Shown: positions 4,480 to 55,280, counted from the first letter of the stretch. The stretch: 64,000 nt of DNA from Sporolactobacillus sp. (GCA_048976585.1 JBHGUY010000009.1:148-64147), one strand, 5' to 3'. Numbers and translations: made by a program. The notes: generated by a model from the letters alone, not told the origin.

Positions 4480-5436
4480 TTATATATTTTCAATCAGCAG
4501 ATCATCGGTTTCGTATTTGACGAAGGGATCGCCCATAACCATCGTTTGGGCTTCCGTATCGCTCGTCCCGGCGTACAAGACAAAAGTTCCATCCATCTGA
4601 CGAAGCCCGCCGCCACTGAAGACAATATCCTTCAAGTCTTCCCGCTTAGACGGTCCGTCAAGAAAATGACTTCGGGTCGCAATTAATTCAATCGGTGTAT
4701 GAAAACCAGTCGATGGGTCAAACGCGAAAGTCATCGGAAAATAATGACGATCACCTTTTTCATCAAAATAAGCGATATGACCGAGCACACCGGCATCTCC
4801 ATTTCTCAGTGGAAGGATTTCATTGGCTCCGCCCCATTCTCCTTCAGCAAAGTGTCCCTGAAGCAGCGGAGCATCCTCAATTTTCCGGCAGTCGAGTTCA
4901 TCAAGCGAATCAATCATGAAATAGCCAATCTTGCCACGTCCGCCCTTCAACCCCTGCGGGCGGGTCAGAACAAGAATGCTTCCCCCGATCAGTTGACCAA
5001 GCCGCAAATCTTTCATTCCGACTGGCCCTTCAAAGAAACGAGCAAGCGTTTTTACATTTTTTCCTTTATATAAAATCGTTCGCCAAGTCACACCGCCGTC
5101 TGAATTCTTGATCACTTCCACACCGCCGAAAACAAGCAATCCATTAATCCGCGTCACAAATGGATCCTGCAAAGGAAACATGGGCAAATCTTCCCGCAGA
5201 TTCCAAACGTCTTCTTCTTCCTCAAAAAAGCCAACAATCGCGTCCTCACTGTCTCTCGCTTCAATTCGACCGGCGATCAGTTCACCCGCCTCATCCATAA
5301 AAGGAGCACTGATGTTATAGACATCTTTGTCTCCTGCACCAGCAAACGTCAATTTCTTTACGGAACGTGCCGAATGATCTTTCTTCAAATAATCCTCCAG
5401 CAAAACTGTACATTCCGTCGCATGCTCTAAAAACAT
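4480..5436 (-). CDS. DUF1861 family protein (GT108 / Leishmania MTP-like mannosyltransferase-phosphorylase), copy 1
   Basis: Motifs DVYNISAPF, LQDPF, GPVGMKDLRL, TRPQG..GGRGKIG, EWGGANE, GHIA, KREDLKD. Clearly homologous to 49410..50336. Confidence 0.8.
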   Translation of the reverse strand: MFLEHATECTVLLEDYLKKDHSARSVKKLTFAGAGDKDVYNISAPFMDEAGELIAGRIEARDSEDAIVGFFEEEEDVWNLREDLPMFPLQDPFVTRINGLLVFGGVEVIKNSDGGVTWRTILYKGKNVKTLARFFEGPVGMKDLRLGQLIGGSILVLTRPQGLKGGRGKIGYFMIDSLDELDCRKIEDAPLLQGHFAEGEWGGANEILPLRNGDAGVLGHIAYFDEKGDRHYFPMTFAFDPSTGFHTPIELIATRSHFLDGPSKREDLKDIVFSGGGLRQMDGTFVLYAGTSDTEAQTMVMGDPFVKYETDDLLIENI

Positions 5437-5777: not shown

Positions 5778-7043
5778 TCAGATGTTCTCGGCACTTTCTA
5801 AGACGTAGGCCTCAGCTTCCTTAGACCAAAGCCCTTCATTTTGTTCGAGAATCTCACGGAGCCCTTTATAAAACGAATTTTTTTCGGAATCCGACAAAAT
5901 TTCTTCCAATGATTTCCGCGGCATATTCTTTTGGACGTAGATCAGTTTTTTACCACTCGGCAGGAGTGATGGTAATTCCAGTGTCGTTTCGGCAACAGCA
6001 TTCAATCCTAAAATATGAGAAACAACCTTTTCAACCTTTAGTTTTCTTTCTTCAACCAGCTTAATGGCTGCACGCATATCATCGGTATTTCCGCCAGAGG
6101 TTCCCACATAATGGGTGAAATTATAATGAATATCGTACAAATTCACTTCAGCAAAGAAATTTTTATCCCGCGGCCCGGCAAAGAAATTGAGACAGCCGTC
6201 TTTTGCCAGCAAACTCGAAGCCTGCTTAATCAACGGTTTTACCGGAGCGAGAACAAAGACATCATCATAGGACTTATTATTAACCACGGATTGGAGATAG
6301 GCCGCCTGATCTTCATGCTTCGCCACGTTCACGTAAACGAGGTTCACACCATCTTTGCGGGCCTCTTCAGGACTATAAAGTCTGGCAGCGTTATTCAATT
6401 TGTCATCACTAAGATCGGTGACGACCAACGTTTTAGGCTGCACCGGTCCGTGAAGCGCATAATCAATCTGCAATAAGCCCATCGGTCCCGTTCCGCCCAT
6501 GATTAGCAGATTGCCATTCTTCTTGATACCCATTTTGTGATCATAGGTGCCCTCAATGAGATGATAATTTGCGTTAAATCCCCCGACAACACAGGAGAGC
6601 GGTTCAAGAAGCGAACCTTCGAAATAACTTTCACCGTTGTACTGGAGTAAACAATCCTGTTCCATGACTTCACGCGGAATAACGATATAGGTTGCATCCC
6701 CGCCAATATATTGAAAGGAATATCCCGGGCAATCCGGCCGGTCAGGCAGCTGCAGATTAGGCTGTATCGCGTATTTATTCCCTTCCTGAAATTTATCTTT
6801 CCATTTTGCCCCAACCTTTACGATTTTGCCGCAGAATTCATGACCGACGATGATCGGTTTTTCGGCAACATTATTAGGAACTTTCTTGTGATCCGGACCA
6901 ATCTTGGCTTCCTTCCAAGAGGACATGCAAATACTATCTGTGACAACTGTTGCCAGAATCTCATCCTCTTTAATTTCCGGAAGTTCAAATTTTTCGAGCC
7001 GCAAGTCTTCTTTTCCATATAAGCGAAGTGCTGTTGTTTGCAT
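5778..7043 (-). CDS. sorE: L-sorbose-1-phosphate reductase (Zn-dependent MDR)
   Basis: MQTTALRLYGKEDLRLE, GHEFCG, GGTGPMG, HYNFTHYVGTSGG typical of SorE; operon context. Confidence 0.88.
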   Translation of the reverse strand: MQTTALRLYGKEDLRLEKFELPEIKEDEILATVVTDSICMSSWKEAKIGPDHKKVPNNVAEKPIIVGHEFCGKIVKVGAKWKDKFQEGNKYAIQPNLQLPDRPDCPGYSFQYIGGDATYIVIPREVMEQDCLLQYNGESYFEGSLLEPLSCVVGGFNANYHLIEGTYDHKMGIKKNGNLLIMGGTGPMGLLQIDYALHGPVQPKTLVVTDLSDDKLNNAARLYSPEEARKDGVNLVYVNVAKHEDQAAYLQSVVNNKSYDDVFVLAPVKPLIKQASSLLAKDGCLNFFAGPRDKNFFAEVNLYDIHYNFTHYVGTSGGNTDDMRAAIKLVEERKLKVEKVVSHILGLNAVAETTLELPSLLPSGKKLIYVQKNMPRKSLEEILSDSEKNSFYKGLREILEQNEGLWSKEAEAYVLESAENI

Positions 7044-7076
7044 GATTCATAGTCCCCTTTGATTTAATATCCGTAT

Positions 7077-7907
7077 TTATTTCAAGAATCCCAACCAGAA
7101 ACCGAGAATACCCAAGCCAAAAAGTGCGAATATCAGTAAAATGGGGCTCGCTTTCTTCTTTAGCAAATACATCATTAGCAGGGTTAACCCGAGCGAAAGA
7201 AGTCCCGGACAGAGTTGGTCAAGAATTCCTTGTACCGTCATCGTTGACTTAACTCCCGCTTGATTCGTTGTTTGGGAAATGATAATCGGCACATTTATTT
7301 TGGTCCACTTGGTAACCAACACGCCCATAATGAAGAGCCCAAGAATTCCAGCACCTTCTGTTAATTTTTTTAGCGTATTGGATGCCATGTCTTTAACAAT
7401 ATCCATCCCTGCTTTATAACCATAGGTAAGTCCATACCATTTCAACGCGAGTCGGACGAGGTTGAAGCTTAGGAAAAAAATGATCGGGCCAAGAATATTT
7501 CCATTTACCGCAAAGGTAGCACCCAGTGCTGCTGTGATCGGTCTTAACGTCCCCCAGATCAAGGGATCTCCAACACCAGCAAGCGGGCCCATAAGACCTA
7601 CCTTCAAACTATTAATCGCTCCATCATCGATTGCTTCTCCGTCCGACCGCGCTTCTTCCATCGCAGCGGTGACACCGACTACCGGGCCACAAACGGCGGG
7701 TGTTGTATTAAAAAATACCAGATGGCGTTTCAAGGCTTCAGCTCGTTCTTCCTCAGTATCATAAAAGCGACGGATTGCCGGAACCATATCGAAACAAAAC
7801 CCCAGAGCATGAATACGTTCATAGTTAAAGGACGCTTGCTGGAAATTCGTTCGCACAAACATGCCAAACAAATCCCTTTTCGTCAGTTTTCTACTTGTTT
7901 CGGCCAT
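7077..7907 (-). CDS. sorM: PTS mannose/sorbose family EIID
   Basis: SFNYERIHALGF, LMGPLAGVGDP. Confidence 0.88.
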   Translation of the reverse strand: MAETSRKLTKRDLFGMFVRTNFQQASFNYERIHALGFCFDMVPAIRRFYDTEEERAEALKRHLVFFNTTPAVCGPVVGVTAAMEEARSDGEAIDDGAINSLKVGLMGPLAGVGDPLIWGTLRPITAALGATFAVNGNILGPIIFFLSFNLVRLALKWYGLTYGYKAGMDIVKDMASNTLKKLTEGAGILGLFIMGVLVTKWTKINVPIIISQTTNQAGVKSTMTVQGILDQLCPGLLSLGLTLLMMYLLKKKASPILLIFALFGLGILGFWLGFLK

Positions 7908-7918
7908 TTTGGCACCTC

Positions 7919-8725
7919 CTAGTCTTCCAGCATGTCATCCGCAAGAGGCGGTGACTGCCCAGACGAAGAATTAGAATGATTGTTTTCGTGATACTTCGGA
8001 CTTAATTGAATATAGACAAGAGCAATAATCAAACCGATAGCACCAAAAGCAACTAAACTGAAATTGAGATACGAAGCAAGCAGAAAACCCAGGAAGAAAA
8101 ACGGCATGAGATATTTGGCGCCCATCATATTTAAGACCATGGCATAACCAACAGTAACAATGAATCCTCCGGCTACATTAAGTCCTCCTGTAACCACTGG
8201 AGGAATGGAATTGAGCAGATGCTGAACACTTCCAGCATTCATAAAAATGGTGACAAGCAAGGCCGGAATTGCCACTCTTAACGCCTGAACGAGCAAAGCG
8301 GATAAATGGAGAAAGTCGATCAGATGAAAATTTGCTTTTTTGGCTGCGCGATCTGCTGCATGTTGAAAAAATACAGTAACCGTTCGCGCAAAAACAGTCA
8401 GGACCTGGCCTGCGGCAGCCACTGGAAGTGCGATTGCGATACCCGCCTGAATATCCTGCTTGCCTACGATGACAAGAATAGTCGAAATGATACTGGCCAA
8501 CGCTGAATCCGGGGATTGAGCGGCCCCGATATTCATCCAGCCTAGAGCTATGAGTTCCAGCGTCCCTCCCAGAATAATCCCTGTATGAAGATCTCCAAGA
8601 ATCAGTCCGACAACCGTACAGGCAATCAATGGTCGGTGTGTCTGAAATTCATCGAGCACACTGCCCATTCCAGCAATACACGAAAAGATGAATATCAATA
8701 TAATCTGTAAAAGGTTAATGTCCAT
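7919..8725 (-). CDS. sorA: PTS mannose/sorbose family EIIC
   Basis: DEFQTHRPLIACT, GWMNIGAAQSPD. Confidence 0.88.
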   Translation of the reverse strand: MDINLLQIILIFIFSCIAGMGSVLDEFQTHRPLIACTVVGLILGDLHTGIILGGTLELIALGWMNIGAAQSPDSALASIISTILVIVGKQDIQAGIAIALPVAAAGQVLTVFARTVTVFFQHAADRAAKKANFHLIDFLHLSALLVQALRVAIPALLVTIFMNAGSVQHLLNSIPPVVTGGLNVAGGFIVTVGYAMVLNMMGAKYLMPFFFLGFLLASYLNFSLVAFGAIGLIIALVYIQLSPKYHENNHSNSSSGQSPPLADDMLED

Positions 8726-8742
8726 CTCTTATCACCCTTCCC

Positions 8743-9234
8743 TTAGGTAAGTGCAATATTTTCAAGTTTTTTCATTAAATCGACGGCAGGATCACTATCA
8801 ACAACTCGCAGGTCTAGCTTCACACCGCGTGCATTTAATTCTTTGAAAGCGGCAATATCATCTTTTCCGACCGATACAGCTTTAGTGATCTGTTTTTTCC
8901 CCTCTCGGAACGCCATACCGCCAATGTTAATTGTTTGAATGGGAACATCTTTTTTTACCAGCCTAAGGACGTCATCAGGGCATGTAAATAGTAAGAAAAC
9001 GGTTTCATTTTCATAAAAAGGATTAAAATAGACCTTGCTTGCCTTTTCAATATCACAAATATTGACTTTGATGCCTGGAGGGGCAGCCTGTTTCAGCAAA
9101 GACTTTCGTACTTGATCGCTCGCCACTTCATCGCTGCAAATAATAATCCGTTTCGCATTCGCTTTTTTTGCCCAAACGGTGGCGACCTGCCCATGAATCA
9201 ATCGATCATCAATTCTAGCAAAATTGATTTTCAT
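8743..9234 (-). CDS. sorB: PTS mannose/sorbose family EIIB
   Basis: RIDDRLIHGQV phospho-His motif. Confidence 0.9.
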   Translation of the reverse strand: MKINFARIDDRLIHGQVATVWAKKANAKRIIICSDEVASDQVRKSLLKQAAPPGIKVNICDIEKASKVYFNPFYENETVFLLFTCPDDVLRLVKKDVPIQTINIGGMAFREGKKQITKAVSVGKDDIAAFKELNARGVKLDLRVVDSDPAVDLMKKLENIALT

Positions 9235-9665
9235 AGAAGTTCATCCTCCTCATTCTCACTCTTTTTCAGCATCTCGCTAAAAAATTTAATCGTTTCAGGT
9301 GAAACTTGTTTGAGATAGGCGATAATTCCTGCTAAATCTTTTTGATTCTGATTGGATATGGCCTCTAATAAAAGCGGTAGGTTCACACCGGCCAAAACAT
9401 CCAAATTTTTATCTTCATAGGCCAGGGCAGCCGCAGCATTGTAAGGGCTCCCGCAAAACAAATCCGTTAATATTAAGCATTCTTGTAAATCATTCTCTTG
9501 CAAGGCCTGATTAATCTTTTTCTTAAGGTCATCCTGGTTTTCTCCTGGAACAAAACGAATCGGATAGACATTTTGGACCTTTCCAAAAATCATCTCAGCA
9601 GAGCGCTTTAACGATTCGGCCAAATCCCCATGTGCACAGATAATGATAGAATACATACCGTTCAC
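9231..9665 (-). CDS. sorF: PTS mannose/sorbose family EIIA
   Basis: IICAHG, LTDLFCGSPYN, GVNLPLLLE. Confidence 0.88.
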   Translation of the reverse strand: MNGMYSIIICAHGDLAESLKRSAEMIFGKVQNVYPIRFVPGENQDDLKKKINQALQENDLQECLILTDLFCGSPYNAAAALAYEDKNLDVLAGVNLPLLLEAISNQNQKDLAGIIAYLKQVSPETIKFFSEMLKKSENEEDELL

Positions 9666-9701
9666 TACCTTCTGACTTTAATTTCAGTAATCATTTGACT
9701 T

Positions 9702-10541
9702 TTACCCTCTCGATTTTCCCCCAGCGATATTATAGGTTGTACCGGTGATATAACTTGCTCGTTTAGAGCTTAAATAAAGAACAAGATCAGCAACTTCTGA
9801 CAGTTTTCCATCACGTCTCAAAGGTATCGACTTGTTTGTATACCCCTGTCGCAGCTGATCAACTGTTATTCCTCTCGTGTAAGCCAGTGCTTCTTCATAA
9901 GCGGGTGTGCGTAAACCTGTTTTTTCTAGAATACCTGGAGCAACACCAACAACACGAATATTATATTTTCCCAATTCTTTTGCCCACGATCTCGTAAAGC
10001 TATATATCGCTGCCTTTGTCGCTGCATAGCCGCTCTGACCTTCGGAGCCTTCAAGGCCGCTTTCGGAAACCATATTGATAATAACGCCTTTATCTGCCTT
10101 AACCATTTCTCTGCCGACAAGCTGTGAGCAAAGGAACACCCCTTTTTGATTGATATCAATCATTTTACCAATGGCCTGATCACTTAATTCAAATTTTCCC
10201 CCTGTTTCTTTTGAATCGACAAGCAACCGTGGGAGATTAATTCCTGCGTTATTGACAAGAACGTCAATACCCCCAAATTTTTCAAATGATTTTTGAACGA
10301 GGGCTTCGACGCTTTCACGCTGCGCGACATTGGTTTTAACAAACAATAATTGGTTATCCGCTGCCTTTTGGATCACTTCTTCCGGTGGTTCCTGCAGGTC
10401 CGCAACAACTACATTGGCATGATTTTCGAGGAGTGCTTCGACAATTGACTGACCAATTCCGGATGATCCCCCTGTAATAATAAACGTTTGGTTATTCAGT
10501 TCTAACCATTCTCCCAATTTATTCCCCTCCGTAAGAATCAA
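9702..10541 (-). CDS. sorD: D-glucitol(sorbitol)-6-phosphate 2-dehydrogenase (SDR)
   Basis: TGGSSGIG, NNAGINLPRLLVD, SESGLEGSEGQSGYAATK (YxxxK). Confidence 0.88.
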   Translation of the reverse strand: MILTEGNKLGEWLELNNQTFIITGGSSGIGQSIVEALLENHANVVVADLQEPPEEVIQKAADNQLLFVKTNVAQRESVEALVQKSFEKFGGIDVLVNNAGINLPRLLVDSKETGGKFELSDQAIGKMIDINQKGVFLCSQLVGREMVKADKGVIINMVSESGLEGSEGQSGYAATKAAIYSFTRSWAKELGKYNIRVVGVAPGILEKTGLRTPAYEEALAYTRGITVDQLRQGYTNKSIPLRRDGKLSEVADLVLYLSSKRASYITGTTYNIAGGKSRG

Positions 10542-10742: not shown

Positions 10743-11708
10743 TTGGAGGAGTTTATTATCGACTTAAAAACAAAAGAACTTTATCTTAAAATTGCGCAGA
10801 TGTACTATGAACTTGATTTAACTCAGAATCAAATCGCCCAGAAAACGGGAATTAATCGAAGCACCATTAGTCGTCTTTTAAAAAAAATCCGTGATGAAGG
10901 GATCGTTAAAATCATTATTAACTATGATTTGACGGATCCATCTCTGGCCAAAAAATTGCAAGATAAATTTTCACTCAAACAAGCCATTGTTGTTTCAGTC
11001 AACGAAAATCAATCCAGCGATTTTAAATTGCGTACAGTGGGGCAAGCCTGTGCTAAATTTTTAGATCAAATCGTTGCAGACAACGATGTCATCGGATTTT
11101 CCTGGGGAGGCAGTCTTGCTGAAACTATCAATTCATTAGAGGTCTCAAAAAAGAGGAAGAATATTCGTTGTGTCCCGCTTCTTGGCGGGCCAGCCAGTAA
11201 ACTGGAAAGCAAATATCATGTGAATACGATTTGTTATGAGGCAGCTCAAAAATTTGAAGGACAATCAATGATGATCGACTTTCCGGCGATTGTAGAGAAC
11301 GCCATCATGCGCAGAGATATTTTAGAGACCGATTATTATAAAAAAATAGTTAACACGTGGAAAAAGATTTCACTCGCTGTTTTTGGCATTGGATCAATTA
11401 AGATCGCCCAACGTTCGACATGGCTTGCTTTCTATGGCAATGACACGGTAGAAAAGCTCTCGAGTGAAGGAGTCGCCGGTGATATATGTTCACGTTTTTT
11501 TGATATCAATGGCAATCAAATTGACACCCATCTGACCGAAAGAACCATTTCTATCCCATTGGAGAAATTAAGAGATTGCCGTTATTCTATTGGCGTTGCT
11601 GAATCATTGGAGAAAGTTTCCGGCATTATTGGCGCTTTAAGAGGTGGTTATATGAATGTCCTGGTGACAACAGATGAGACGGCCAGAGAAATATTAAACC
11701 GAACCTAA
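10743..11708 (+). CDS. sorC: SorC/DeoR sugar-binding transcriptional regulator
   Basis: KIAQMYYELDLTQNQIA HTH, IGFSWGG, GDICSRFFD. True start uncertain (see findings). Confidence 0.88.
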   Translation: MEEFIIDLKTKELYLKIAQMYYELDLTQNQIAQKTGINRSTISRLLKKIRDEGIVKIIINYDLTDPSLAKKLQDKFSLKQAIVVSVNENQSSDFKLRTVGQACAKFLDQIVADNDVIGFSWGGSLAETINSLEVSKKRKNIRCVPLLGGPASKLESKYHVNTICYEAAQKFEGQSMMIDFPAIVENAIMRRDILETDYYKKIVNTWKKISLAVFGIGSIKIAQRSTWLAFYGNDTVEKLSSEGVAGDICSRFFDINGNQIDTHLTERTISIPLEKLRDCRYSIGVAESLEKVSGIIGALRGGYMNVLVTTDETAREILNRT

Positions 11709-11780: not shown

Positions 11781-13133
11781 TTACATCCCATTCGTGACAT
11801 AATAGGAAATATCTTTGTCAACTGCGCCAACGACACCGCTCGCGTGGCCGCTGCTGGTGTATTGCCAAATATCCGCCGAAAACCCTGGTCCAAGATACGT
11901 CTCTTGGCCTCGGTAGCGGGCAACCCAAATCAGAAATTTAGGCTGTGCGGGCTGAGCCTGTGTGATCTGCGGCAGATTCAAATCGGTATTGAAAAAACTC
12001 ATCCCGGAATAGATGCCCAGTTGATTCAATCCATTCGCGCGCATTTGATCAAGGAAGGCGAGAACCGAATTTGTCAAAGCCGTTTTTCCACCAGCATTAT
12101 TGGTTTCGACATCGACAAATAAATACTGGAAATGCACGCCGTCTTTCGTGGCGACATTTTTTACGGTCGAGGCAAAATGATTGGCTTCATTTCGCGCGGC
12201 TTCAGGGGAACTCGCGCGGAGGAAATGATACGCGTCAACAGTCAGACCGGCATGACTCGCTCCAACACTATTTCTCTCAAAATGGGCATCCGGTGCACTA
12301 GTACCGTCAGTCGCTTTGGTGATGATAAAACTGTTTCCGTCCTGTTTGATTGCGTTGAAGTCCACCGTATTTTGATAGTGAGAAATATCAATTCCAAACT
12401 GCGAAGATGCGGTCGTCGGCGGATCAGATGGCGTGCGATCATACGAAACCGGCTTTGTGGTCGTCAGGTAACGATTCTGCACATATCCGGAAGTACTGCT
12501 TGATCGGACAAGTGCATACTTATTGCCTTTTCCGAGAACGGTCACTGACTGATTTCGGCTCAGCGTCTTGCGAACCTTGTAGTGCGTGCTCGCCTGTGTG
12601 CGAATCTTCAAAGTCGGTGAAGTGACATATGCCGTATAGGTGTGAAATGCGGAGTGGCTCAGGCAGGCATTGCGAACGTAACCGTTCGTTCCGCCATATT
12701 GAATCAACGCATATTTATTTCCTTTACCGATTACCGTCACTTTATTCGCCATCGCCAGCGTGCGGCGCGTTGTATAGTGAATGCTTGCCTGACTGCGCAT
12801 CTTAAGGGTATAGGAAGTTACGTAGCCTGTCTGCGATTGGAATTTACTCCGATTCAAATATTGTGCCTGGACATATCCGGTCGTGCTGCCATAGCGCACA
12901 CGCGAATATTTGCCGGAACGCCCAATCACGGACACCTTATTCGTCATCGCCAGCGTGCGCAGCGTCCGATAATGCGTGCTTGCACGGCTGCGAATCTTCA
13001 GAGTATATGTAGTCACATAAGCGCTGTAAGATGAACTCGCATGCGCCGTACCTGCTGGCGGTCCAGCCAGCATAAGTACCCAAATCAAGCCAATCAAGAG
13101 GCAGGGTATCCATCGCTTTACTCTTTGTTCCAC
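11781..13133 (-). CDS. Secreted GH25 muramidase/autolysin with three N-terminal SH3b-like repeats
   Basis: Signal peptide (AHA); three ~64-aa repeats YVTxxTLKxRxxASxHY; GIDISHYQ and DVE catalytic motifs. Confidence 0.88.
   Translation of the reverse strand: MEQRVKRWIPCLLIGLIWVLMLAGPPAGTAHASSSYSAYVTTYTLKIRSRASTHYRTLRTLAMTNKVSVIGRSGKYSRVRYGSTTGYVQAQYLNRSKFQSQTGYVTSYTLKMRSQASIHYTTRRTLAMANKVTVIGKGNKYALIQYGGTNGYVRNACLSHSAFHTYTAYVTSPTLKIRTQASTHYKVRKTLSRNQSVTVLGKGNKYALVRSSSTSGYVQNRYLTTTKPVSYDRTPSDPPTTASSQFGIDISHYQNTVDFNAIKQDGNSFIITKATDGTSAPDAHFERNSVGASHAGLTVDAYHFLRASSPEAARNEANHFASTVKNVATKDGVHFQYLFVDVETNNAGGKTALTNSVLAFLDQMRANGLNQLGIYSGMSFFNTDLNLPQITQAQPAQPKFLIWVARYRGQETYLGPGFSADIWQYTSSGHASGVVGAVDKDISYYVTNGM
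12545..13035 (-). repeat. Three ~195-bp intragenic repeats encoding the SH3b-like domains
   Basis: TTATTCG(C/T)CATCGCCAGCGTGCG at ~12742 and ~12937, plus the protein-level triplication. Confidence 0.75.
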
Positions 13134-46367: not shown

Positions 46368-47126
46368 TTACCAATCAATGGTCTGCGGATAGCTCTCATC
46401 ATCAAATTGAATCTGGCTAACTGGTACCTGATGAAGGGCCGATGTCTGTCGAATTTGAATCAGCATCTCTGGGTATTTTCCGGTACGGTGAATAATTTGA
46501 TCAATAAAAATCGGAAGATACTCCAAACGCTCCTCGCGGTTAGCCAAATTGATATAACTGATAGACAGTTTATCAATGAACTGAGTCATATAGCCACCAA
46601 AATAGGTATAAAAGTGTGTAATCGATTTGAGAAATTGCGTGTAGGTTTCCTCAGACGTCATTGTCCGATATTCAGCCAATACCGCCGTTTGCAAGCGACG
46701 AACCGCCGCGATATCCGGATCAAGCATCACTTTTGGAGCAAGCATCTTTTCCATATTATTCGTCTCTGCGAGCTTCGCGGCATGCAGCAGAATAAAATCA
46801 TTCAAGATGCTCACAATAAAAATCATTTCGATCCAGACCGTACGAAAGGAATACGCTACATTCTTCTCAGAAGTGACAACGCTTTGCCGCATCATAATGT
46901 CATGAGTCATCTGGTTGTCTATTAAACTGATTTCCCGGTTCCCCATATAGGCATGCCGCAAATCATACAGGAAGGCGAGCAGATGAATCCGCGCACCTGC
47001 GTATTCGATATATTCTCCTTCTTCACCAATGATCGCGAGCATGGCTTCATACAGTTCATAAAAATCATCAAAATCTCCCGTCAGCATGACTCCTGTTGCA
47101 TTTGCTGTCGTTTGTGCACTTAACAT
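46368..47126 (-). CDS. Conserved hypothetical protein (DUF6904-like, tentative)
   Basis: Long ORF; pattern GV.LTGDF.DF..LYE...YDLRHA.MG.RE; family name from memory only. Confidence 0.6.
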   Translation of the reverse strand: MLSAQTTANATGVMLTGDFDDFYELYEAMLAIIGEEGEYIEYAGARIHLLAFLYDLRHAYMGNREISLIDNQMTHDIMMRQSVVTSEKNVAYSFRTVWIEMIFIVSILNDFILLHAAKLAETNNMEKMLAPKVMLDPDIAAVRRLQTAVLAEYRTMTSEETYTQFLKSITHFYTYFGGYMTQFIDKLSISYINLANREERLEYLPIFIDQIIHRTGKYPEMLIQIRQTSALHQVPVSQIQFDDESYPQTIDW

Positions 47127-48329: not shown

Positions 48330-49397
48330 TTATCTTTTAATTGCAGTTAATTCAGCGAGTATCTCATCGATATTGAGTTCAGCACCAGCCATCGAACGGT
48401 CGGAAACACCGTAATAAAGTCGCAACGTACGGTCATGCACGATCCCGCCACAGGTAAAGACAACTTCGCCGAAGAATCCCTTCTTCTCGTAGTCTTCCTC
48501 GGGTTCAAGCACCGGTTTTTCGGAACGGGCAAGGACCTTTGTCGGATCGTCCAGATCAAGCAGAACCGCGCCGAGACAATAACGATCATCCGCTGACATG
48601 CCATGATAGATTTCGAGCCAGCCCTGCGACGTTTTGATCGGAACCGCCCCCGCACCGATCCGCGCGCCATCCCACCTGCCCGGGCGAATCGGCAAAAGAT
48701 GCTGATGGTGACCCCACTCCAGTAGATTTTTAGAGCGAGCAATCCAAATATCCGGCTGGCCGACACTCTTCAGTGACGGACGATTTAGCGCATAATAATA
48801 ACCCTTGATTTTCTCAGGAAAGATGACCACATCTTTATTTTCAGGAGCAAAAATCAAACCATGATCCTGATAGCTGACAAAATCCTTTGTTTCGACCAAA
48901 TTCACACCGATACCAATCGGTGAAACTGCGCTGAAGGTGATATAGTATGAATCACCAATCGGCGTGATTCTCGAATCCTCGACGCCAAACAACTGATAAC
49001 GATTCGAGGGATAGATAAAAGGCTGCGCGTCAATCTTGAAGTGATGACCGTCTGTACTGCGTGCCAAGCGAAAATAGGATAAAGAAGTTAGACCGCAGAA
49101 TACATTGGGATGACTGGCTAGGCGAATGACCCGGTTATCATCAAAAAGATAGTCCGGATCATTCCGATCATAGGCCTGGGTAATCACTTGCTGCTGCTTC
49201 AAATCAAAGGAAGGAGATAATATCTTTCTACCCTGACTGATCGGGCGTTCCGCTACTCGCAGAAGCAGCAGGGTTTCGCCATTAAATTCTACCACACCGG
49301 CGTTGAAGGCCCCAATCACCTCGTAACCCTCATGGTATGGCGAAATATCTTCCGGTGTAATCAATGGATTTTCAGAAAAACGGTAAATGACTGGCAA
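48330..49397 (-). CDS. GH130 beta-mannoside phosphorylase (beta-1,2-mannobiose/oligomannan type)
   Basis: GAFNAG, GVEDSRIT, PENKDV, NRPS, RIGAG, EIYHG, VVFTCG. Confidence 0.88.
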   Translation of the reverse strand: MPVIYRFSENPLITPEDISPYHEGYEVIGAFNAGVVEFNGETLLLLRVAERPISQGRKILSPSFDLKQQQVITQAYDRNDPDYLFDDNRVIRLASHPNVFCGLTSLSYFRLARSTDGHHFKIDAQPFIYPSNRYQLFGVEDSRITPIGDSYYITFSAVSPIGIGVNLVETKDFVSYQDHGLIFAPENKDVVIFPEKIKGYYYALNRPSLKSVGQPDIWIARSKNLLEWGHHQHLLPIRPGRWDGARIGAGAVPIKTSQGWLEIYHGMSADDRYCLGAVLLDLDDPTKVLARSEKPVLEPEEDYEKKGFFGEVVFTCGGIVHDRTLRLYYGVSDRSMAGAELNIDEILAELTAIKR

Positions 49398-49409
49398 AAT
49401 AAAAGCCTC

Positions 49410-50336
49410 CTATTTTTCATAATTTAAAAAAGGATCATTCAATACAATTTTCTGAGCCTCTGCATCACTCGTTCCCGCATACAAGGTGAAGGTGGAATGA
49501 TATCTGATTCCACCACCAGTGAAAATCACATCTTTCAGATCTGGACGTTTTGCCGGACCATTAAGGAAATTGGTACGAATGGCAATAATTTCAATGGGAG
49601 AATGAGCACCGGTTAACGGATTTAAAGTGAATGCCATTGAATAATAATGACGATCGCCGCGCGCATCAAAACAGGCGATATGACCAAGTACACCCGCTTT
49701 CCCGTTTTTTAAGGGATGAATCTCATTGGCTCCCCCCCACTCACCTAAAGCGAAATAATCTTCCAATAAGGGAGCATCTTCCAATCTTTGGCTGGACAAT
49801 TGATCGAGTCGAGAAAGAAGCAAATAACCAATTTTTCCTCTGCCGCCTTTCCCCCCTTGAGGTCTGGTCAGAATCAATATTTTACCATCTACCATTTGTC
49901 CGAGGCGCAAATCCTTCATTCCGATCGGCCCCACATAAAAAGGAAGTAAATTTTTTACCGAGCTTCCTTTATATAAGACAGTCCGCCATACCACTTTATG
50001 GTCTGGATTAATTAATACTTCAACTCCACCCAGAAGTAGCTGTCCGTCAATTTGTGTGACAAAGGGGTCCTGAAGAGGAAATACCGGCATATTCTCCATT
50101 AGATACCAGATTCCCTTTCTATTTTCAAAAAAACAGATGGTGGAATGCTCATTGCTTCTTTTTTCAACACGCCCCGCGATAATCTGTTTGGATTCATCGA
50201 TAAAAGGCACCGTCGGATTATAGATATCACATCCTTTAATCCCTTTGAAAATTAATTTTTTTACATCATAAACGATCGATTTCTCTTTTTTGTAAGCTTT
50301 CAGCAACGCCCGGCAACTCATGGCCCTTGCACTCAT
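49410..50336 (-). CDS. DUF1861 family protein (GT108/MTP-like), copy 2
   Basis: DIYNPTVPF, LQDPF, GMKDLRL, RPQGGKGGRG, EWGGANE, GHIA, KRPDL; SD GGAGG supports ATG 50336. Confidence 0.8.
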   Translation of the reverse strand: MSARAMSCRALLKAYKKEKSIVYDVKKLIFKGIKGCDIYNPTVPFIDESKQIIAGRVEKRSNEHSTICFFENRKGIWYLMENMPVFPLQDPFVTQIDGQLLLGGVEVLINPDHKVVWRTVLYKGSSVKNLLPFYVGPIGMKDLRLGQMVDGKILILTRPQGGKGGRGKIGYLLLSRLDQLSSQRLEDAPLLEDYFALGEWGGANEIHPLKNGKAGVLGHIACFDARGDRHYYSMAFTLNPLTGAHSPIEIIAIRTNFLNGPAKRPDLKDVIFTGGGIRYHSTFTLYAGTSDAEAQKIVLNDPFLNYEK

Positions 50337-50368
50337 CTCATTCTTCCTCCATAGTATCTCCAAAGATT

Positions 50369-51205
50369 TTATTTCAGCGTGAACTGCATGCCTTCCTGGA
50401 AATTCCTTGAGAAACATAGGAACAGCACGATTAATGGAATCGTTAATATGACAGATGCTGCGTACATTGGCCCCGGATAGGTTGCATAGGGCCCGAACAT
50501 CTGAGAAATCAAAACGTTCAGCGTTGTCATGTTGTCACTCTTTGCGACAATCATATCCCATAGAAGAAGTGTCCAGCGATCGGTGAAGAGGAATAAGAAA
50601 ATAACTGTGGTGATCGATTTAGACATCGGCAACATGATTCGAAAGAGAATGGTCAAATCCCCAGCGCCATCCAAACGTGCTGCCTCTATGAGTGCATCAG
50701 GAACCGCTTTGAAAAAGTTTGTATACATGAAAATCGCCCAAAGACTCAAAGCAGTCGGCAATATCATCCCGAGATACGAATTCAACAACCCTACTTTTGT
50801 AACAAGCAAGAACTGAGGAATCAAGAGAATGATTGCCGGGAAGAACATCTGGAACAAGATGGCATTATCTAACAATCTTTTGCCTTTGAAGTTCAATTTT
50901 GCCAGAGCATACGCGACCATGATCGCAAACAGAAGCATCAAGGCGACTGAAAGAGTTGAAACGAGGATTGTGTTGAAAAAAGAATGGATCCATGGTGCCG
51001 GCGCCGACGTCGTTGAGGGGTGAAGTAACCAATCCCAGGAACGTAAAGAATATTTAGTTGGAAATAATTTTTTATCCACCTGATCCCAACTTGCGAAGGA
51101 GTTAAGCACCAAGTAGACGAAGGGATAGATCATGACAAGCATCAAGAGCGTTGCCAACGTATAGCGAATGCTCAAACCGATTTTTTTCTGTTTACGACCA
51201 CCCAT
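50369..51205 (-). CDS. Carbohydrate ABC permease (MalG-type)
   Basis: EAA loop LIEAARLDGA. Confidence 0.9.
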   Translation of the reverse strand: MGGRKQKKIGLSIRYTLATLLMLVMIYPFVYLVLNSFASWDQVDKKLFPTKYSLRSWDWLLHPSTTSAPAPWIHSFFNTILVSTLSVALMLLFAIMVAYALAKLNFKGKRLLDNAILFQMFFPAIILLIPQFLLVTKVGLLNSYLGMILPTALSLWAIFMYTNFFKAVPDALIEAARLDGAGDLTILFRIMLPMSKSITTVIFLFLFTDRWTLLLWDMIVAKSDNMTTLNVLISQMFGPYATYPGPMYAASVILTIPLIVLFLCFSRNFQEGMQFTLK

Positions 51206-52067
51206 TACGTGCGCCCCACTTCTCCATCAGTTTTCTAAAAATACCGATTGAAGCAAAGGTCACGACTGCCGAAATTAATGCGACGGCGGAGGCATAACCA
51301 GATTTTAAATTAACAAACGCCTGATTGTAGATTTCCATCTGCCAAGTATTGGTTCCATAATTTGGTCCTCCGCCTGTCAGCTGATAGACTTCTGTAAAAA
51401 TACCAAAACTCGTGCCAACAGCTAGAACAAGAACCGTATAGAGTGCCGGATAGAGCATAGGGATCGTAATCCTCCAGAAACTTTTCCACCGATTTGCGCC
51501 GTCCATCGCAGCTGCCTCATAGAGTTCTTCATTGATTCCAGACAATCCGGATACAAAAATCAAAGCATAATATCCTGACATCTTCCAAGCGATCATGAAA
51601 GAAATAACAAGGAGCGCGCTGATCGGCGTGCCTAACCAATTCACATCCAAGTGGAAGGTATGGCGAAGAAAAATATTAAACGGCCCATTATACGATAGAA
51701 TACCTTTTACAATCAGTGATGAAACAACACCCGATGACAAATATGGCAGAAAGAAAGCGACCAAAAATAATCCTTTAAATCTGGGCAATCCATTGACGAG
51801 CATGGCAATCCACAGAGATAAAACAACCGCCATCGGAACAAAAATAATCAAGAACTTAAAGGTCACAAAAAATGCGGCATGGATGGCCGGACTCTCCAAG
51901 GCCTGCACAAAATTTGTCATGCCGACAAAATGAACCATCGGGGACATCATATCCCAGTTTGTAACAGAAAGCCATGCTGACCAGATCAATGGAATGAGAA
52001 AGAATATGAAGGTGTAGATCAAATAAGGGCTAGAAAATATCCAGCCCAATTTATTGTTTCGTTTCAT
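51192..52067 (-). CDS. Carbohydrate ABC permease (MalF-type)
   Basis: EAA loop LYEAAAMDGA. Confidence 0.9.
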   Translation of the reverse strand: MKRNNKLGWIFSSPYLIYTFIFFLIPLIWSAWLSVTNWDMMSPMVHFVGMTNFVQALESPAIHAAFFVTFKFLIIFVPMAVVLSLWIAMLVNGLPRFKGLFLVAFFLPYLSSGVVSSLIVKGILSYNGPFNIFLRHTFHLDVNWLGTPISALLVISFMIAWKMSGYYALIFVSGLSGINEELYEAAAMDGANRWKSFWRITIPMLYPALYTVLVLAVGTSFGIFTEVYQLTGGGPNYGTNTWQMEIYNQAFVNLKSGYASAVALISAVVTFASIGIFRKLMEKWGARNGWS

Positions 52068-53380
52068 TGCCCTAACTCTTCTTTCTCACTCTTCACTAAA
52101 TCACTCCATGCTTTGGTTGGCGACTTCTGTCCCCGAATAACCGGATTGAAGGCTTGCACGCCGATTTGCTGCATAATGTCGTTATAATTTTTATTATCCA
52201 TTGAGGGGATACCATATCCCACATTCTCTGCATATACTTTAAGCTCAGGATGCTTGTTGAAGAAAGCAGTAAATTGACTGTCTGTTGCTGCATTATCACG
52301 TGCCGGGATCAAATTGGTTGTATTCAAAAAAGTCAGATCATTTTTTGAATGACTAAAAACAAAATTTAAAAACTGAACGGCTGCTTTTTGTTGTTCCTTG
52401 GTTGCTGTTGAATAAATGACGATCCCTTTTGAATCTGCATACGTATAAGGATGAACCCCATTTTTCATACTATCTGGAACAGGCGGCGGCGCGAGTGTAT
52501 AAGTCTTTCCATATTTCAACTTTGGATATTTCTCAGCCCAGTTCGGAAATGACCATGGACCATTATCGACCATCAGACCCGTTCCCGTCTCAAATGGATC
52601 AGTCGCTTGCTTGGTCAACAGGCCGTTTTCCTTTCTTAGCTGATCCATGAATGTCAGTACTTCTTTGCCAGCTTTATCGTTGGCTACAAATTTTGTACCG
52701 GATACGTAATCATTCCCTTTTGATGCTGCATTATAAAGAAGGAAAAAATCAAACCATCTTTGCCATGACGTCGGATCAACGAGAGCTGGCTTTGCCCAAA
52801 CGTATTTATCAGGATATTTCTCTTTGAGTTTTTTCCCTACTTTAAGAACATCACGATATGTTTTAGGTGGCGTTGAATATCCCAGCTTCTTCAGTGTGTC
52901 CAACCGCCAAGCAAACAGAATCGGATTGGAATAAACAGGGAAAACATATTGATTTCCATCTGAGAAGGTCCACCCCTTAATCGTTTTATTCATATTCCGT
53001 GATTTTACGAGATCAGATATTCCTGCTAATTTGTTAAGTGGTTGAATGGCTTTACTGTCTGCCAGCTGCGCCCCAAAGCTTCGTGTAATATTTTCCGACA
53101 TGGTTGGGACTGTCTTTGAGGCAACTGCGGACTGAATAGTCGCTTCTGAAGATGGACTTTCTTTCATTTGTGTCACATTAACTGTGACCTTAGGATGCTT
53201 TGCTTCATAAGCACTGGCCATCTGCTTCCAGAACTTTGTTTGCGGCGGATTCGGCGCCGACCAAAAGGTAATCGTCGTTTTTCCGTTGCTTCCCGAACCT
53301 GTTGAAGATCCACAACCTGCCAATAGACTTGCGCCGAGAAGGAATGCCGATAAGACTACCGTGATCCTTTTTAAAGACAT
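52064..53380 (-). CDS. Carbohydrate ABC substrate-binding lipoprotein
   Basis: Lipobox LLAGC; family-1 SBP pattern. Confidence 0.9.
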   Translation of the reverse strand: MSLKRITVVLSAFLLGASLLAGCGSSTGSGSNGKTTITFWSAPNPPQTKFWKQMASAYEAKHPKVTVNVTQMKESPSSEATIQSAVASKTVPTMSENITRSFGAQLADSKAIQPLNKLAGISDLVKSRNMNKTIKGWTFSDGNQYVFPVYSNPILFAWRLDTLKKLGYSTPPKTYRDVLKVGKKLKEKYPDKYVWAKPALVDPTSWQRWFDFFLLYNAASKGNDYVSGTKFVANDKAGKEVLTFMDQLRKENGLLTKQATDPFETGTGLMVDNGPWSFPNWAEKYPKLKYGKTYTLAPPPVPDSMKNGVHPYTYADSKGIVIYSTATKEQQKAAVQFLNFVFSHSKNDLTFLNTTNLIPARDNAATDSQFTAFFNKHPELKVYAENVGYGIPSMDNKNYNDIMQQIGVQAFNPVIRGQKSPTKAWSDLVKSEKEELGQ

Positions 53381-53426
53381 AAACTCTACCTCCTTTTTTC
53401 TGATGCAGAGAATAGTAATATCGTAA

Positions 53427-53608
53427 TTGAAAGCGCTTACTACAATTACAATATGGCACTGTCTATTTATTATGTCAATTTATTTCTAACATTACTTTTA
53501 TGATTACAAAAATATTAGTGAAATAAATTAGTATATATGCTGATTTCCCTTTTTAATAACAATTATATTCTTATTTTGTAATTGCATTACTTATGGAAAG
53601 CGATTACA
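53427..53608. promoter_or_regulatory. Two cre/LacI-type operators in the divergent SBP-LacI intergenic region
   Basis: TTGAAAGCGCTTAC at 53427-53440 and TGGAAAGCGATTACA at 53594-53608. Confidence 0.65.
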
Positions 53609-53681
53609 TTATCTGTTATACTTTTATAAAGTACAAATCGTACAAAAAGCTACCGGATAGGTGAACGAATGGAGATTCCCT

Positions 53682-54743
53682 ATGAAAAAAATAACCATGC
53701 AAGATATTGCCGACCAACTCAATCTTTCCAAAAATTCCGTGTCGCAGGCATTAGGTGATAAAAACGGAGTCAGTCAGCATACAAAAACACTGGTCCGAGA
53801 GAAAGCGATCGAACTTGGTTATCATTATAAAAAGAAAGCAAGTCTCGCAGATCTATCATCCACTGAATATTCATACTACGCTCTTTTTGCCACAGAATTT
53901 GCTTTATCTCAGATAAGCTTCTTTGGGGAAATCCAGCATTATATTGAAAAAGAACTCAATAAAAAGAGGCGTGAGCTGGTTACATTCAGCATTTCTCCAG
54001 AATTAGTGGCTGCTCAGAAACTGCCAAGCAACTTCGCTGCCAAAGATTTTAAAGGACTTTTTATTCTGTCTCACATCAAACAGGAGTATACTTCACACTT
54101 ATTGCACCTCAACCTTCCCTGTGTTCTGATTGATCACCACGATCCCCACTTAAATGTAGATTGCGTGATTAGTCAAAATAAGTCTGGTGCTTACACCGCA
54201 ATGGAGTATCTGATAAAATTGGGGCATCGGCATATCGGTTTCTTAGGCAATATTAATTGGTCACCCAGCTATGAGGAACGATGGGAGGGCTATTCGAAAG
54301 CAATCCGCGATTATAAACTGAATGACGATAAAGAATGTGCGATTACTGATGTTCTTGAGGAACGCTCAACACTTTTCAAGCAGCTTGATGCGCTCTCAAA
54401 CAAATTAATAAACTGGCCAACTGCATGGCTTTGTGTAAATTCTGGCCTTGGTTTCATCCTCATCTCCTATTTTCAATCAAAAGGCTATCGAGTGCCTGAT
54501 GATATTTCCGTTTGCTGTTTCGATAATACAGAAATGACTCTTCTATCTCATCCACAGATTACAACCATGGCCATTAATATGGCTCAAATGGGGAAAAAAT
54601 CAGTTGAACTTCTGAACTGGCGCACTCATCATCCTGAGGAACCCCATGTTAATTTATCTCTATCAACGCATCTCATTGAAAGAGACTCCACCTCCCCTTT
54701 ATCTGTGGCAAAACCCAGAGAGGGAAAAAAACAAACCCCATAA
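53682..54743 (+). CDS. LacI family transcriptional regulator
   Basis: ITMQDIADQLNLSKNSVSQAL HTH; PDDISVCCFDN. Confidence 0.9.
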   Translation: MKKITMQDIADQLNLSKNSVSQALGDKNGVSQHTKTLVREKAIELGYHYKKKASLADLSSTEYSYYALFATEFALSQISFFGEIQHYIEKELNKKRRELVTFSISPELVAAQKLPSNFAAKDFKGLFILSHIKQEYTSHLLHLNLPCVLIDHHDPHLNVDCVISQNKSGAYTAMEYLIKLGHRHIGFLGNINWSPSYEERWEGYSKAIRDYKLNDDKECAITDVLEERSTLFKQLDALSNKLINWPTAWLCVNSGLGFILISYFQSKGYRVPDDISVCCFDNTEMTLLSHPQITTMAINMAQMGKKSVELLNWRTHHPEEPHVNLSLSTHLIERDSTSPLSVAKPREGKKQTP

Positions 54744-54752
54744 GGAGTTCAT

Positions 54753-55280
54753 CTACATGAAATGATCGCAGCTATCTTCCTCTGCGGCTGTTTTGAGCAT
54801 TTTCCATATTTCAAATTTCTGATCATAGCTTTTAACGTTACGACCGGGCATCGGGCTGGATGAGGGAAGCAGGATCATTGGCAAATCGTTCATTTGGCCC
54901 GTCCTTTTTCTAAAAACATCCTGTGCTTTTCTTCCGTTGAAGGCGATCAGACGAACATTTGGATATCTCTGTAGAAGCTGCGGAATAGCATTGACGGCTT
55001 CATCATGAATAGCGGAATCAAGACTGCCTTCCCTCCTGCAAAAATGGATCACATCCCAAAGCGCCAGATGGTGTTTCAGGAGAAAGGCCGTTTTTTTCGT
55101 ATAATCTGCCTCTAAAGGCTCATCGAATATCTGGAAAAGCAGCCGCCAAAAATGATTGCGCGGATTGCCATAATACTGCTGCTTTGCAAGTGAGATACGG
55201 CTCGGCATCGAACCCAGAATCAGCACCCGCGATTCCGAATCAATGATCGGTGCCAGCGAAAAGATGAATGTTTCGTCCAA
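54753..55280 (-). CDS. Uracil-DNA glycosylase superfamily, DNA-deoxyinosine glycosylase-like
   Basis: ILGSMPS, YYGNPRNHFW, LWDVI, LPSSSP. Confidence 0.85.
   Translation of the reverse strand: MDETFIFSLAPIIDSESRVLILGSMPSRISLAKQQYYGNPRNHFWRLLFQIFDEPLEADYTKKTAFLLKHHLALWDVIHFCRREGSLDSAIHDEAVNAIPQLLQRYPNVRLIAFNGRKAQDVFRKRTGQMNDLPMILLPSSSPMPGRNVKSYDQKFEIWKMLKTAAEEDSCDHFM

Follow-up and report, generated by a model that had tools for sequence, protein, structure and literature searches.

Through computational analysis of a 64,000-nucleotide stretch of DNA from Sporolactobacillus sp. (GCA_048976585.1 JBHGUY010000009.1:148-64147; hereafter the window), a putative sugar-utilisation locus has been delineated at positions 48330-54743. 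Open reading frame (ORF) calls and family scans place five genes on the minus strand, encoding a lipoprotein substrate-binding protein (SBP), two permeases of an ATP-binding cassette (ABC) importer, a DUF1861/GT108 protein and a GH130 enzyme, opposite a divergent LacI gene (Table 1). A first-pass annotation of the same DNA had proposed this order, SBP–permease–permease–DUF1861–GH130 in one transcript under LacI control, and the ORF calls and domain scans bear the gene order out. It had also described a locus with neither an ATPase nor a secreted hydrolase, and the scans agree with both statements. No ABC ATPase gene was found within the locus by ORF and family scans. The flanking genes, which encode an XRE-type membrane protein, a DUF6904 protein, a deoxyinosine glycosylase and a DoxX protein, carry no glycoside-hydrolase domain according to domain scans of the nearest flanking ORFs, for which signal peptides were not predicted.

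Table 1. Genes and candidate regulatory elements of the locus (window coordinates)
Feature	Position	Strand	Basis
Intrinsic terminator-like hairpin and T-run, 12 nt past the GH130 stop codon	48298-48317	-	Terminator-like site search
GH130_4 beta-1,2-mannobiose phosphorylase-type enzyme	48330-49397	-	PF04041 E 4e-50; TTG start
Cytoplasmic DUF1861/GT108 five-bladed propeller, X (AncX) clade	49410-50336	-	PF08950 E 2e-103
ABC permease, MalG/UgpE-like	50369-51205	-	PF00528 (BPD_transp_1); MalG and UgpE models below cut-offs
ABC permease, MalF/UgpA-like	51192-52067	-	PF00528 (BPD_transp_1); UgpA and MalF models below cut-offs
Lipoprotein SBP of CUT1-type sugar ABC importer, counterpart of Listeria Lmo0859	52064-53380	-	PF13416, PF01547 (SBP_bac_1/8)
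Operator-like element O1, ATATCGTAATTG / CAATTACAATAT arms around ATTGAAAGCGCTTAC	53418-53454	.	Repeat families D1 and I3; putative function
Sigma-70-type promoter-like site for the five-gene unit, TTGACA-17-(TG)CATATT	53450-53478	-	Consensus match only
Operator-like element O2, TGTAATTGCATT / AAAGCGATTACA arms and a copy of the ATGGAAAGCGATTAC repeat	53577-53608	.	Repeat families D1 and I6; putative function
LacI-family repressor	53661-54743	+	PF00356, PF13377, PF00532; ORF from GTG 53661

The SBP and first permease genes overlap by 4 nt and the two permease genes by 14 nt, and a gap of 32 nt separates the second permease gene from the start of DUF1861. This start is probably ATG 50336, in view of a GGAGGA site 8 nt upstream and of the resulting protein of 308 aa, which has the same size as its relatives; the ORF as listed spans 49410-50417 (-) and overlaps the permease gene by 49 nt. 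The TAG stop codon of DUF1861 falls within the AGGAGG site that serves the TTG start codon of GH130, and by this arrangement the two genes appear to be translationally coupled. One promoter-like site lies 5' of the SBP gene and one hairpin with a T-run lies 3' of GH130, in a search in which the terminator-like sites found equalled the number expected from shuffled sequence. A further terminator-like hairpin at 52047-52027 was set aside in view of that count and of its position inside a coding region. On the basis of the gene overlaps, the stop codon within a ribosome-binding site, the promoter-like site and the terminator-like hairpin a single transcription unit is proposed; the tight spacing and the lone signal at either end are consistent with one transcript.

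The GH130 enzyme has been assigned to subfamily GH130_4. It scores 574 bits on the NCBIfam equivalog model NF050092 (beta-1,2-mannobiose phosphorylase; cut-off 550), aligns end to end with Lin0857 of Listeria innocua (E 3e-138, 58% identity) and is 44% identical to the gut enzyme Uhgb_MS. The long lid loop, residues 52-105 in Lin0857, is kept with a length difference of one residue, and its Arg89 and Val90 correspond in the alignment to Arg88 and Val89 of Uhgb_MS, the Arg and Val/Met blocking subsite +3. Arg47 and Glu140 of the +1 subsite, which are linked to beta-1,2 specificity, and Arg246 of the phosphate site align with Uhgb_MS Arg47, Glu136 and Arg242; every beta-1,2-mannoside determinant examined is retained. 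The roles of the lid and of the +1 residues have been defined previously, the lid restricting GH130_4 substrates to a degree of polymerisation (DP) of 2-3 (PMC12814180). The NF050092 score, the Lin0857 match and these determinants support the first-pass reading to the extent that the enzyme belongs to the subfamily of beta-1,2-mannobiose phosphorylases, while the score together with the lid loop and the +1 residues specifies the subfamily as GH130_4. Phosphorolysis of beta-1,2-mannobiose is accordingly the activity that would be expected from a member of this subfamily.

The neighbouring protein matches PF08950 with 345.9 bits over model positions 4-295 of 296, and the Leishmania proteins MTP4, MTP1 and MTP2 in the PDB with E values of 1e-31 to 1e-38. 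Its AlphaFold 2 model (predicted local distance difference test score, pLDDT, 93.4) was matched by Foldseek to 6q50, 6q4x and 6q4w (MTP1/2/4) at template-modelling (TM) scores of 0.85-0.90. By profile and predicted fold its membership of the GT108/DUF1861 family is firm, but since MTP4, MTP1 and MTP2 all match within that TM range, the fold comparison fails to separate a transferase from a phosphorylase. Published residue numbers were mapped through the PDB alignments, with the offset cross-checked on the D94N mutant chain. The catalytic Asp90 (MTP2 Asp94) and the donor-site residues Asp142, Arg158, His219 and Asp291 (MTP4 Asp134, Arg150, His208 and Asp285) are conserved, and all five are invariant across 36 relatives. 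Arg158 represents the “phosphorylase” state of a His/Arg switch, in which the Arg is insufficient by itself for phosphorylase activity (PMC10913872). The equivalent of MTP4 Glu82 is Gln89, and Gln160 is also present, giving RPQ instead of RPR; in MTP4 the E82A exchange abolishes phosphorylase activity and leaves transferase activity intact. The first-pass annotation called the native role of bacterial GT108 proteins poorly defined, in agreement with the GT108 literature examined, where that role stays undefined.

A maximum-likelihood tree of 59 sequences, including the synthetic AncX, AncY and AncZ recovered by protein search, resolves two clades with 100/100 support each, separated by the deepest split of the family. 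The Y clade comprises AncY, AncZ and the Leishmania MTPs together with proteins of Paenibacillus, Cohnella, Lederbergia and Lentisphaeria; AncY and AncZ are 76% and 73% identical to a homolog from Paenibacillus segetis. The X clade has AncX (GenBank OR742805) at its base with zero branch length and contains every GH130-adjacent DUF1861 examined as well as all three paralogs of the present genome. The window protein, 53% identical to AncX, thus does not descend from node AncY and falls in the sister clade. The clades differ in signature, LQDP...RPQ in X against LEDP...RPR in Y, and both positions are proximal to the active site. Gln89 is invariant in the 36 relatives and the third position of RPQ varies in a few X-clade rows, while AncY, AncZ, MTP4 and the Y-clade rows from bacteria have LEDP and RPR. 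The copies from Sporolactobacillaceae all group in a single clade. A division of DUF1861 into old GH130-linked and orphan lineages was rejected, the two kinds of copy being interleaved in the tree.

The importer is of the CUT1 type, consisting of a family-1 SBP with a lipoprotein signal and two BPD_transp_1 permeases. The SBP translation carries an L-A-G-C (LAGC) lipobox and matches the crystallised Lmo0859 (PDB 4gqo) with E 7e-183 over residues 28-433. Permeases encoded in orthologous loci share 58-71% identity with the MalF/UgpA-like permease and 52-72% with the MalG/UgpE-like one. In the 3.8-Mb genome, which its named relatives put in or close to Sporolactobacillus, a single MalK/UgpC/MsmX-type ATPase is encoded, unlinked, on another contig (C49, at ~54.8 kb), and this ATPase probably serves the importer. 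An unlinked, shared ATPase is the usual arrangement in Bacillota. In Listeria monocytogenes the MsmX counterpart Lmo0278, encoded elsewhere in the genome, demonstrably powers the importer for maltodextrin (PMC2860498).

The regulator possesses both an N-terminal LacI helix-turn-helix domain and a sensor domain resembling periplasmic binding proteins, and its gene shows 42-46% identity with its LacI counterparts next to orthologous loci; translation probably begins at ATG 53682, with GGAGA just upstream. O1 and O2 are related composite inverted repeats situated at the two divergent promoters, each with one copy of GAAAGCG(C/A)TTAC. One end of O1 overlaps the operon's -10 hexamer (53450-53455), the element reaching downstream from there, and O2 sits at the -35 region of the LacI promoter-like site (53594-53622). 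The repeat copy in O1 also fits the consensus of the catabolite-responsive element (cre), at 53427-53441, a pattern matched 5 times in the window where 1.9 matches are expected. The operator common to orthologous loci, TTGTAACGTTACAA, has no match in the regulatory region; its only match in the window with up to 3 mismatches, at 54830, is no better than chance, and it was therefore rejected as an operator here. Local repression by LacI combined with catabolite control through CcpA and cre is the natural reading of these putative sites.

The distribution of the module was surveyed in 401 Bacilli genomes, which are related to one another, so that the counts are given no statistical weight. DUF1861 is present in 34 genomes, 26 of which also have a GH130_4-type gene, and directly adjoins GH130_4 in 16 of the 34, in many genera. 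Mapping of the window proteins onto 45 loci revealed the order LacI / SBP–permease–permease–[GH13]–DUF1861–GH130 in at least 10 other loci. Common extensions are a GH2 beta-mannosidase, a dehydrogenase, a major facilitator superfamily transporter, a ROK kinase and a phosphomannose isomerase (PMI); in other loci a 589-aa phosphohexomutase of the phosphomannomutase (PMM) type directly follows GH130. One mutase-bearing locus shows the exact seven-gene order expected for lmo0859-lmo0865, with a GH130 closest to Lin0857 (574 bits). The DUF1861–GH130 pair with an ABC importer and LacI, as the first-pass annotation described it, is thus a recurrent, catabolic-looking module, often accompanied by PMI, ROK, GH2 or the PMM-type mutase. 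Two Bacillaceae genomes, those of Lederbergia citri (L065 8046-11093) and Bacillus sp. 1P02SD (L069 8040-11092), have one DUF1861 of the X clade (LQDP/RPQ) and one of the Y clade (LEDP/RPR) in tandem between GH13 and GH130 within the same LacI/ABC operon, which offers a ready-made comparison of the clades.

DUF1861 also occurs in other surroundings. Three genomes of one genus carry bare DUF1861–GH130 pairs (L024 9256-11301, L027 and L029) between pheS/pheT/cvpA and a cell-wall hydrolase and mutS2, with no transporter or regulator nearby. In two Paenibacillaceae-like genomes, at L051 9707-14255 (-) and L047 5702-10484, DUF1861 stands beside a GT4 gene, a gene for a ~370-aa protein without Pfam match and ManC (NTP_transferase and ManC beta-helix), the gene set of Teth514_1785-1787 with DUF1861 in place of the GH130_6 phosphorylases. 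In Sporolactobacillus sp. CQH2019 (L007 2166-12026, +) a GT4–Wzy–GT2–Wzx–pectate-lyase-like polysaccharide cluster is followed directly, on the same strand, by two DUF1861 genes with GH130, and no importer was found within 10 kb of this trio. The Y-clade genes of Paenibacillus loci L042 8164-13407 and L067 1027-9942 are monocistronic, face an AraC regulator and lie next to a GH38 alpha-mannosidase-like gene; no GH130 was found near them.

The present genome encodes three DUF1861 paralogs (58-61% identity) and one GH130. The second paralog, 58% identical to the operon copy, lies in the window at 4480-5436 (-), 340 bp downstream of an operon at 5778-10541 (-) for a mannose/sorbose-type phosphotransferase system (IIA-IID), a short-chain dehydrogenase/reductase and a Zn-dehydrogenase-like protein, which faces a SorC-type regulator gene (10743-11708, +). 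In another genome of the genus (L050) the sole DUF1861 likewise has genes for a SorC-type regulator and for a ribulose-phosphate epimerase as neighbours. The third paralog (G000:C39:90001-90870; L014 9936-10940, -), which the tree shows as the sister of the operon copy, with 61% identity, is located at a contig end next to Rap-phosphatase-like tetratricopeptide-repeat genes, its upstream context being lost. Elsewhere the genome encodes a phosphohexomutase of 587 aa and has two PMI genes. In five DUF1861–GH130-bearing genomes (98-100% complete, including the Listeria-type one) no ManC beta-helix domain was detected, only sub-threshold hits of generic nucleotidyltransferases, and an enzyme strictly dependent on GDP-mannose would therefore have no donor there. 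As a discriminator between transferase and phosphorylase, GDP-mannose synthesis is informative for the relatives only.

The window locus is a minimal version of a cluster type already known from Listeria. The cluster of L. innocua Lin0857 (lmo0858-lmo0865 in L. monocytogenes) shares with it the divergent LacI, the Lmo0859-type SBP, the two permeases and DUF1861 followed by GH130_4, and it too contains no ATPase gene, the MsmX counterpart Lmo0278 being encoded elsewhere in L. monocytogenes. The identification of lmo0863/lin0856 as the DUF1861 gene is probable by analogy, resting on the order and number of genes in a relative rather than on a Listeria record. In contrast to the window, the Listeria-type layout (L052) has a GH13 gene between the permeases and DUF1861 and a PMM-type mutase after GH130, and the operator sequences also differ. 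A further parallel is the Teth514_1785-1796 cluster of Thermoanaerobacter sp. X-514, in which an ABC importer is combined with two propeller enzymes of the cytoplasm that use beta-1,2-mannosides, DP 2-3 being the limit for one (PMC4264767, PMC12814180). However, both of those enzymes are proven phosphorylases of subfamily GH130_6 and the cluster has its own ATPases, ManC and GT4, whereas in the window the short-chain enzyme belongs to GH130_4 and the candidate for the long-chain role, which is only predicted, is a GT108 protein. The Y-clade GT108 proteins (Leishmania MTP1-7, AsGT of Anaerocolumna sedimenticola, AncY and AncZ) share with the window protein the Pfam family, the propeller and the catalytic and donor-site residues, but are only 30-36% identical to it, lie across the deepest split and differ in the Glu that precedes the catalytic Asp and in RPR. 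AncX shares the signature; it is a statistical reconstruction tested in vitro only, whereas the window enzyme is extant, stands in an importer operon and has relatives in genomes without detectable ManC.

Taken together, the locus can be read, with somewhat better than even confidence, as a LacI-repressed operon, probably also under CcpA/cre control, that scavenges short beta-1,2-mannooligosaccharides, its GT108 partner being most probably a phosphorylase of longer chains. The lipoprotein SBP and the two permeases would import the sugar, powered by the unlinked MsmX/MalK-type ATPase. In the cytoplasm the lid-bearing GH130_4 would convert beta-1,2-mannobiose or -triose and phosphate into alpha-mannose-1-phosphate along with mannose, and the PgcA-type phosphohexomutase and PMI encoded elsewhere would feed the product into glycolysis. 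Import and phosphorolysis of short beta-1,2-mannosides by these components are likely, to judge from the subfamily and synteny assignments. The co-translated GT108 enzyme would act on the same pool, most probably by phosphorolysing chains longer than the GH130_4 lid admits, in the way that Teth514_1788 complements Teth514_1789; that pair is the precedent for such a division of labour by chain length (PMC4264767). The import of beta-1,2-mannosides proposed by the first-pass annotation gains from the SBP being the counterpart of Lmo0859 and from the recurrence of the importer in a catabolic-looking module, while ligand and induction are still predictions. The source that it named, yeast mannan, is imprecise, as beta-1,2 linkages have been described in Candida-type mannan, in the O-antigens of some bacteria and in the mannogen of trypanosomatids; baker's-yeast mannan is not known to contain them. 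Of the two-enzyme phosphorolysis that it suggested, the GH130_4 half is supported; the role of DUF1861 as second phosphorylase is not secured, given the AncX clade and the Gln at the Glu82 position.

It is the reaction of the GT108 enzyme that we infer with the greatest caution: that it works as a phosphorylase of longer chains in vivo is a tentative assignment, a little short of an even chance. In its favour are the retained catalytic Asp and donor-site residues, Arg158 among them, and the pair-bearing genomes without ManC. Several results weigh against it. AncX and an alternative reconstruction are strict GDP-mannose transferases in vitro that leave mannose-1-phosphate unused, and phosphorylase activity first appears at AncY, to be kept in AncZ and extant AsGT (PMC10913872). 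The Glu/RPR of the phosphorylase-capable clade, to which AncY, AncZ, AsGT and MTP3/4/6/7 belong, is replaced throughout the X clade by Gln89/RPQ, and with this signature and placement the label “MTP-like phosphorylase” is not simply transferable to the window protein. The tandem X and Y copies of L065 and L069 imply that the two types are non-redundant, yet both serve the same imported substrate. Some X-clade copies stand in non-catabolic settings, and the genome encodes a ManC-like gene (TIGR01479, 221 bits, below cut-off), so that a supply of GDP-mannose has to be reckoned with here. These points lead to the alternative that the protein is, like AncX, a GDP-mannose-dependent beta-1,2-mannosyltransferase. 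Together with GH130_4 it would synthesise and degrade beta-1,2-mannosides held in a small pool inside the cell, as a bacterial equivalent of mannogen cycling in Leishmania, while the importer would supply a mannose-containing sugar or a primer. In its favour are the zero branch length at which AncX joins the clade and the presence of Gln89 and Gln160 in AncX, unlike in every phosphorylase-capable member examined; the weak transferase activity seen in all beta-1,2 GH130 phosphorylases tested; the three DUF1861 paralogs next to one GH130 and a ManC-like gene; and the gene contexts without a catabolic operon, namely the bare pairs among housekeeping genes, the two loci with GT4, a hypothetical gene and ManC, and the trio after the Wzx/Wzy cluster. 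Nevertheless, such a transferase is unlikely. The gene is co-translated within a LacI-repressed importer operon to which relatives add PMI, ROK kinase, GH2 and PMM, a catabolic design; at least five pair-bearing genomes have no recognisable GDP-mannose pyrophosphorylase; the GH130_4 lid, with its DP 2-3 limit, is poorly suited to polymer turnover; a reconstructed ancestor is not an extant enzyme; and in this family phosphorylase activity toggles through distal mutations.

A broader form of the same idea, in which extant X-clade GT108 proteins in general, the window protein included, are not phosphorylases and act with GH130_4 as synthase and phosphorylase to even out the flow of mannose by way of a short-lived beta-1,2-mannoside pool inside the cell, is decidedly unlikely; the Leishmania “mannogen rheostat” would then have been invented by bacteria and acquired with another set of enzymes. 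It is quite improbable that the true substrate is a mixed glycoside, for example one whose beta-mannosyl unit is carried by glucose, by a sugar acid or by a fragment of a glycan, for which the acceptor or leaving-group specificity of GT108 differs from that of GH130_4. The GH13 alpha-glucosidase-like gene between permeases and DUF1861 and the GH2 beta-mannosidase of many orthologous operons would fit such a substrate, but the window operon has neither; the divergence of the three paralogs suggests diversified specificity, and Teth514_1789 also accepts fructose, but the window GH130 retains the beta-1,2-mannoside determinants and all characterised GT108 members act on beta-1,2-mannosides. The Listeria cluster, which may be cited here too, was formerly proposed as a maltose system, a proposal disproved by experiment (PMC2860498). 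Other GT108 specificities take the remaining probability.

The locus is an unremarkable version of a known cluster, the GH130 enzyme and the SBP of the Listeria representative having been crystallised before. Its value is that of a clean minimal test case, an importer and two enzymes without accessory hydrolases. The X branch of GT108, a large bacterial branch and the one standing beside GH130_4 in every such pair examined, is known by experiment solely through one resurrected ancestor, AncX. Were the window enzyme a phosphorylase, the picture in which phosphorylase activity arose later would need revision and a new long-chain beta-1,2-mannan phosphorylase would be available for synthesis; were it a transferase, bacteria would possess a mannogen-like cycle.

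Two further genes of the window are unrelated to the locus: a full-length DUF6904 protein is encoded at 46368-47126 (-), and a GH25 muramidase with three SH3_3 repeats at 11781-13133 (-).

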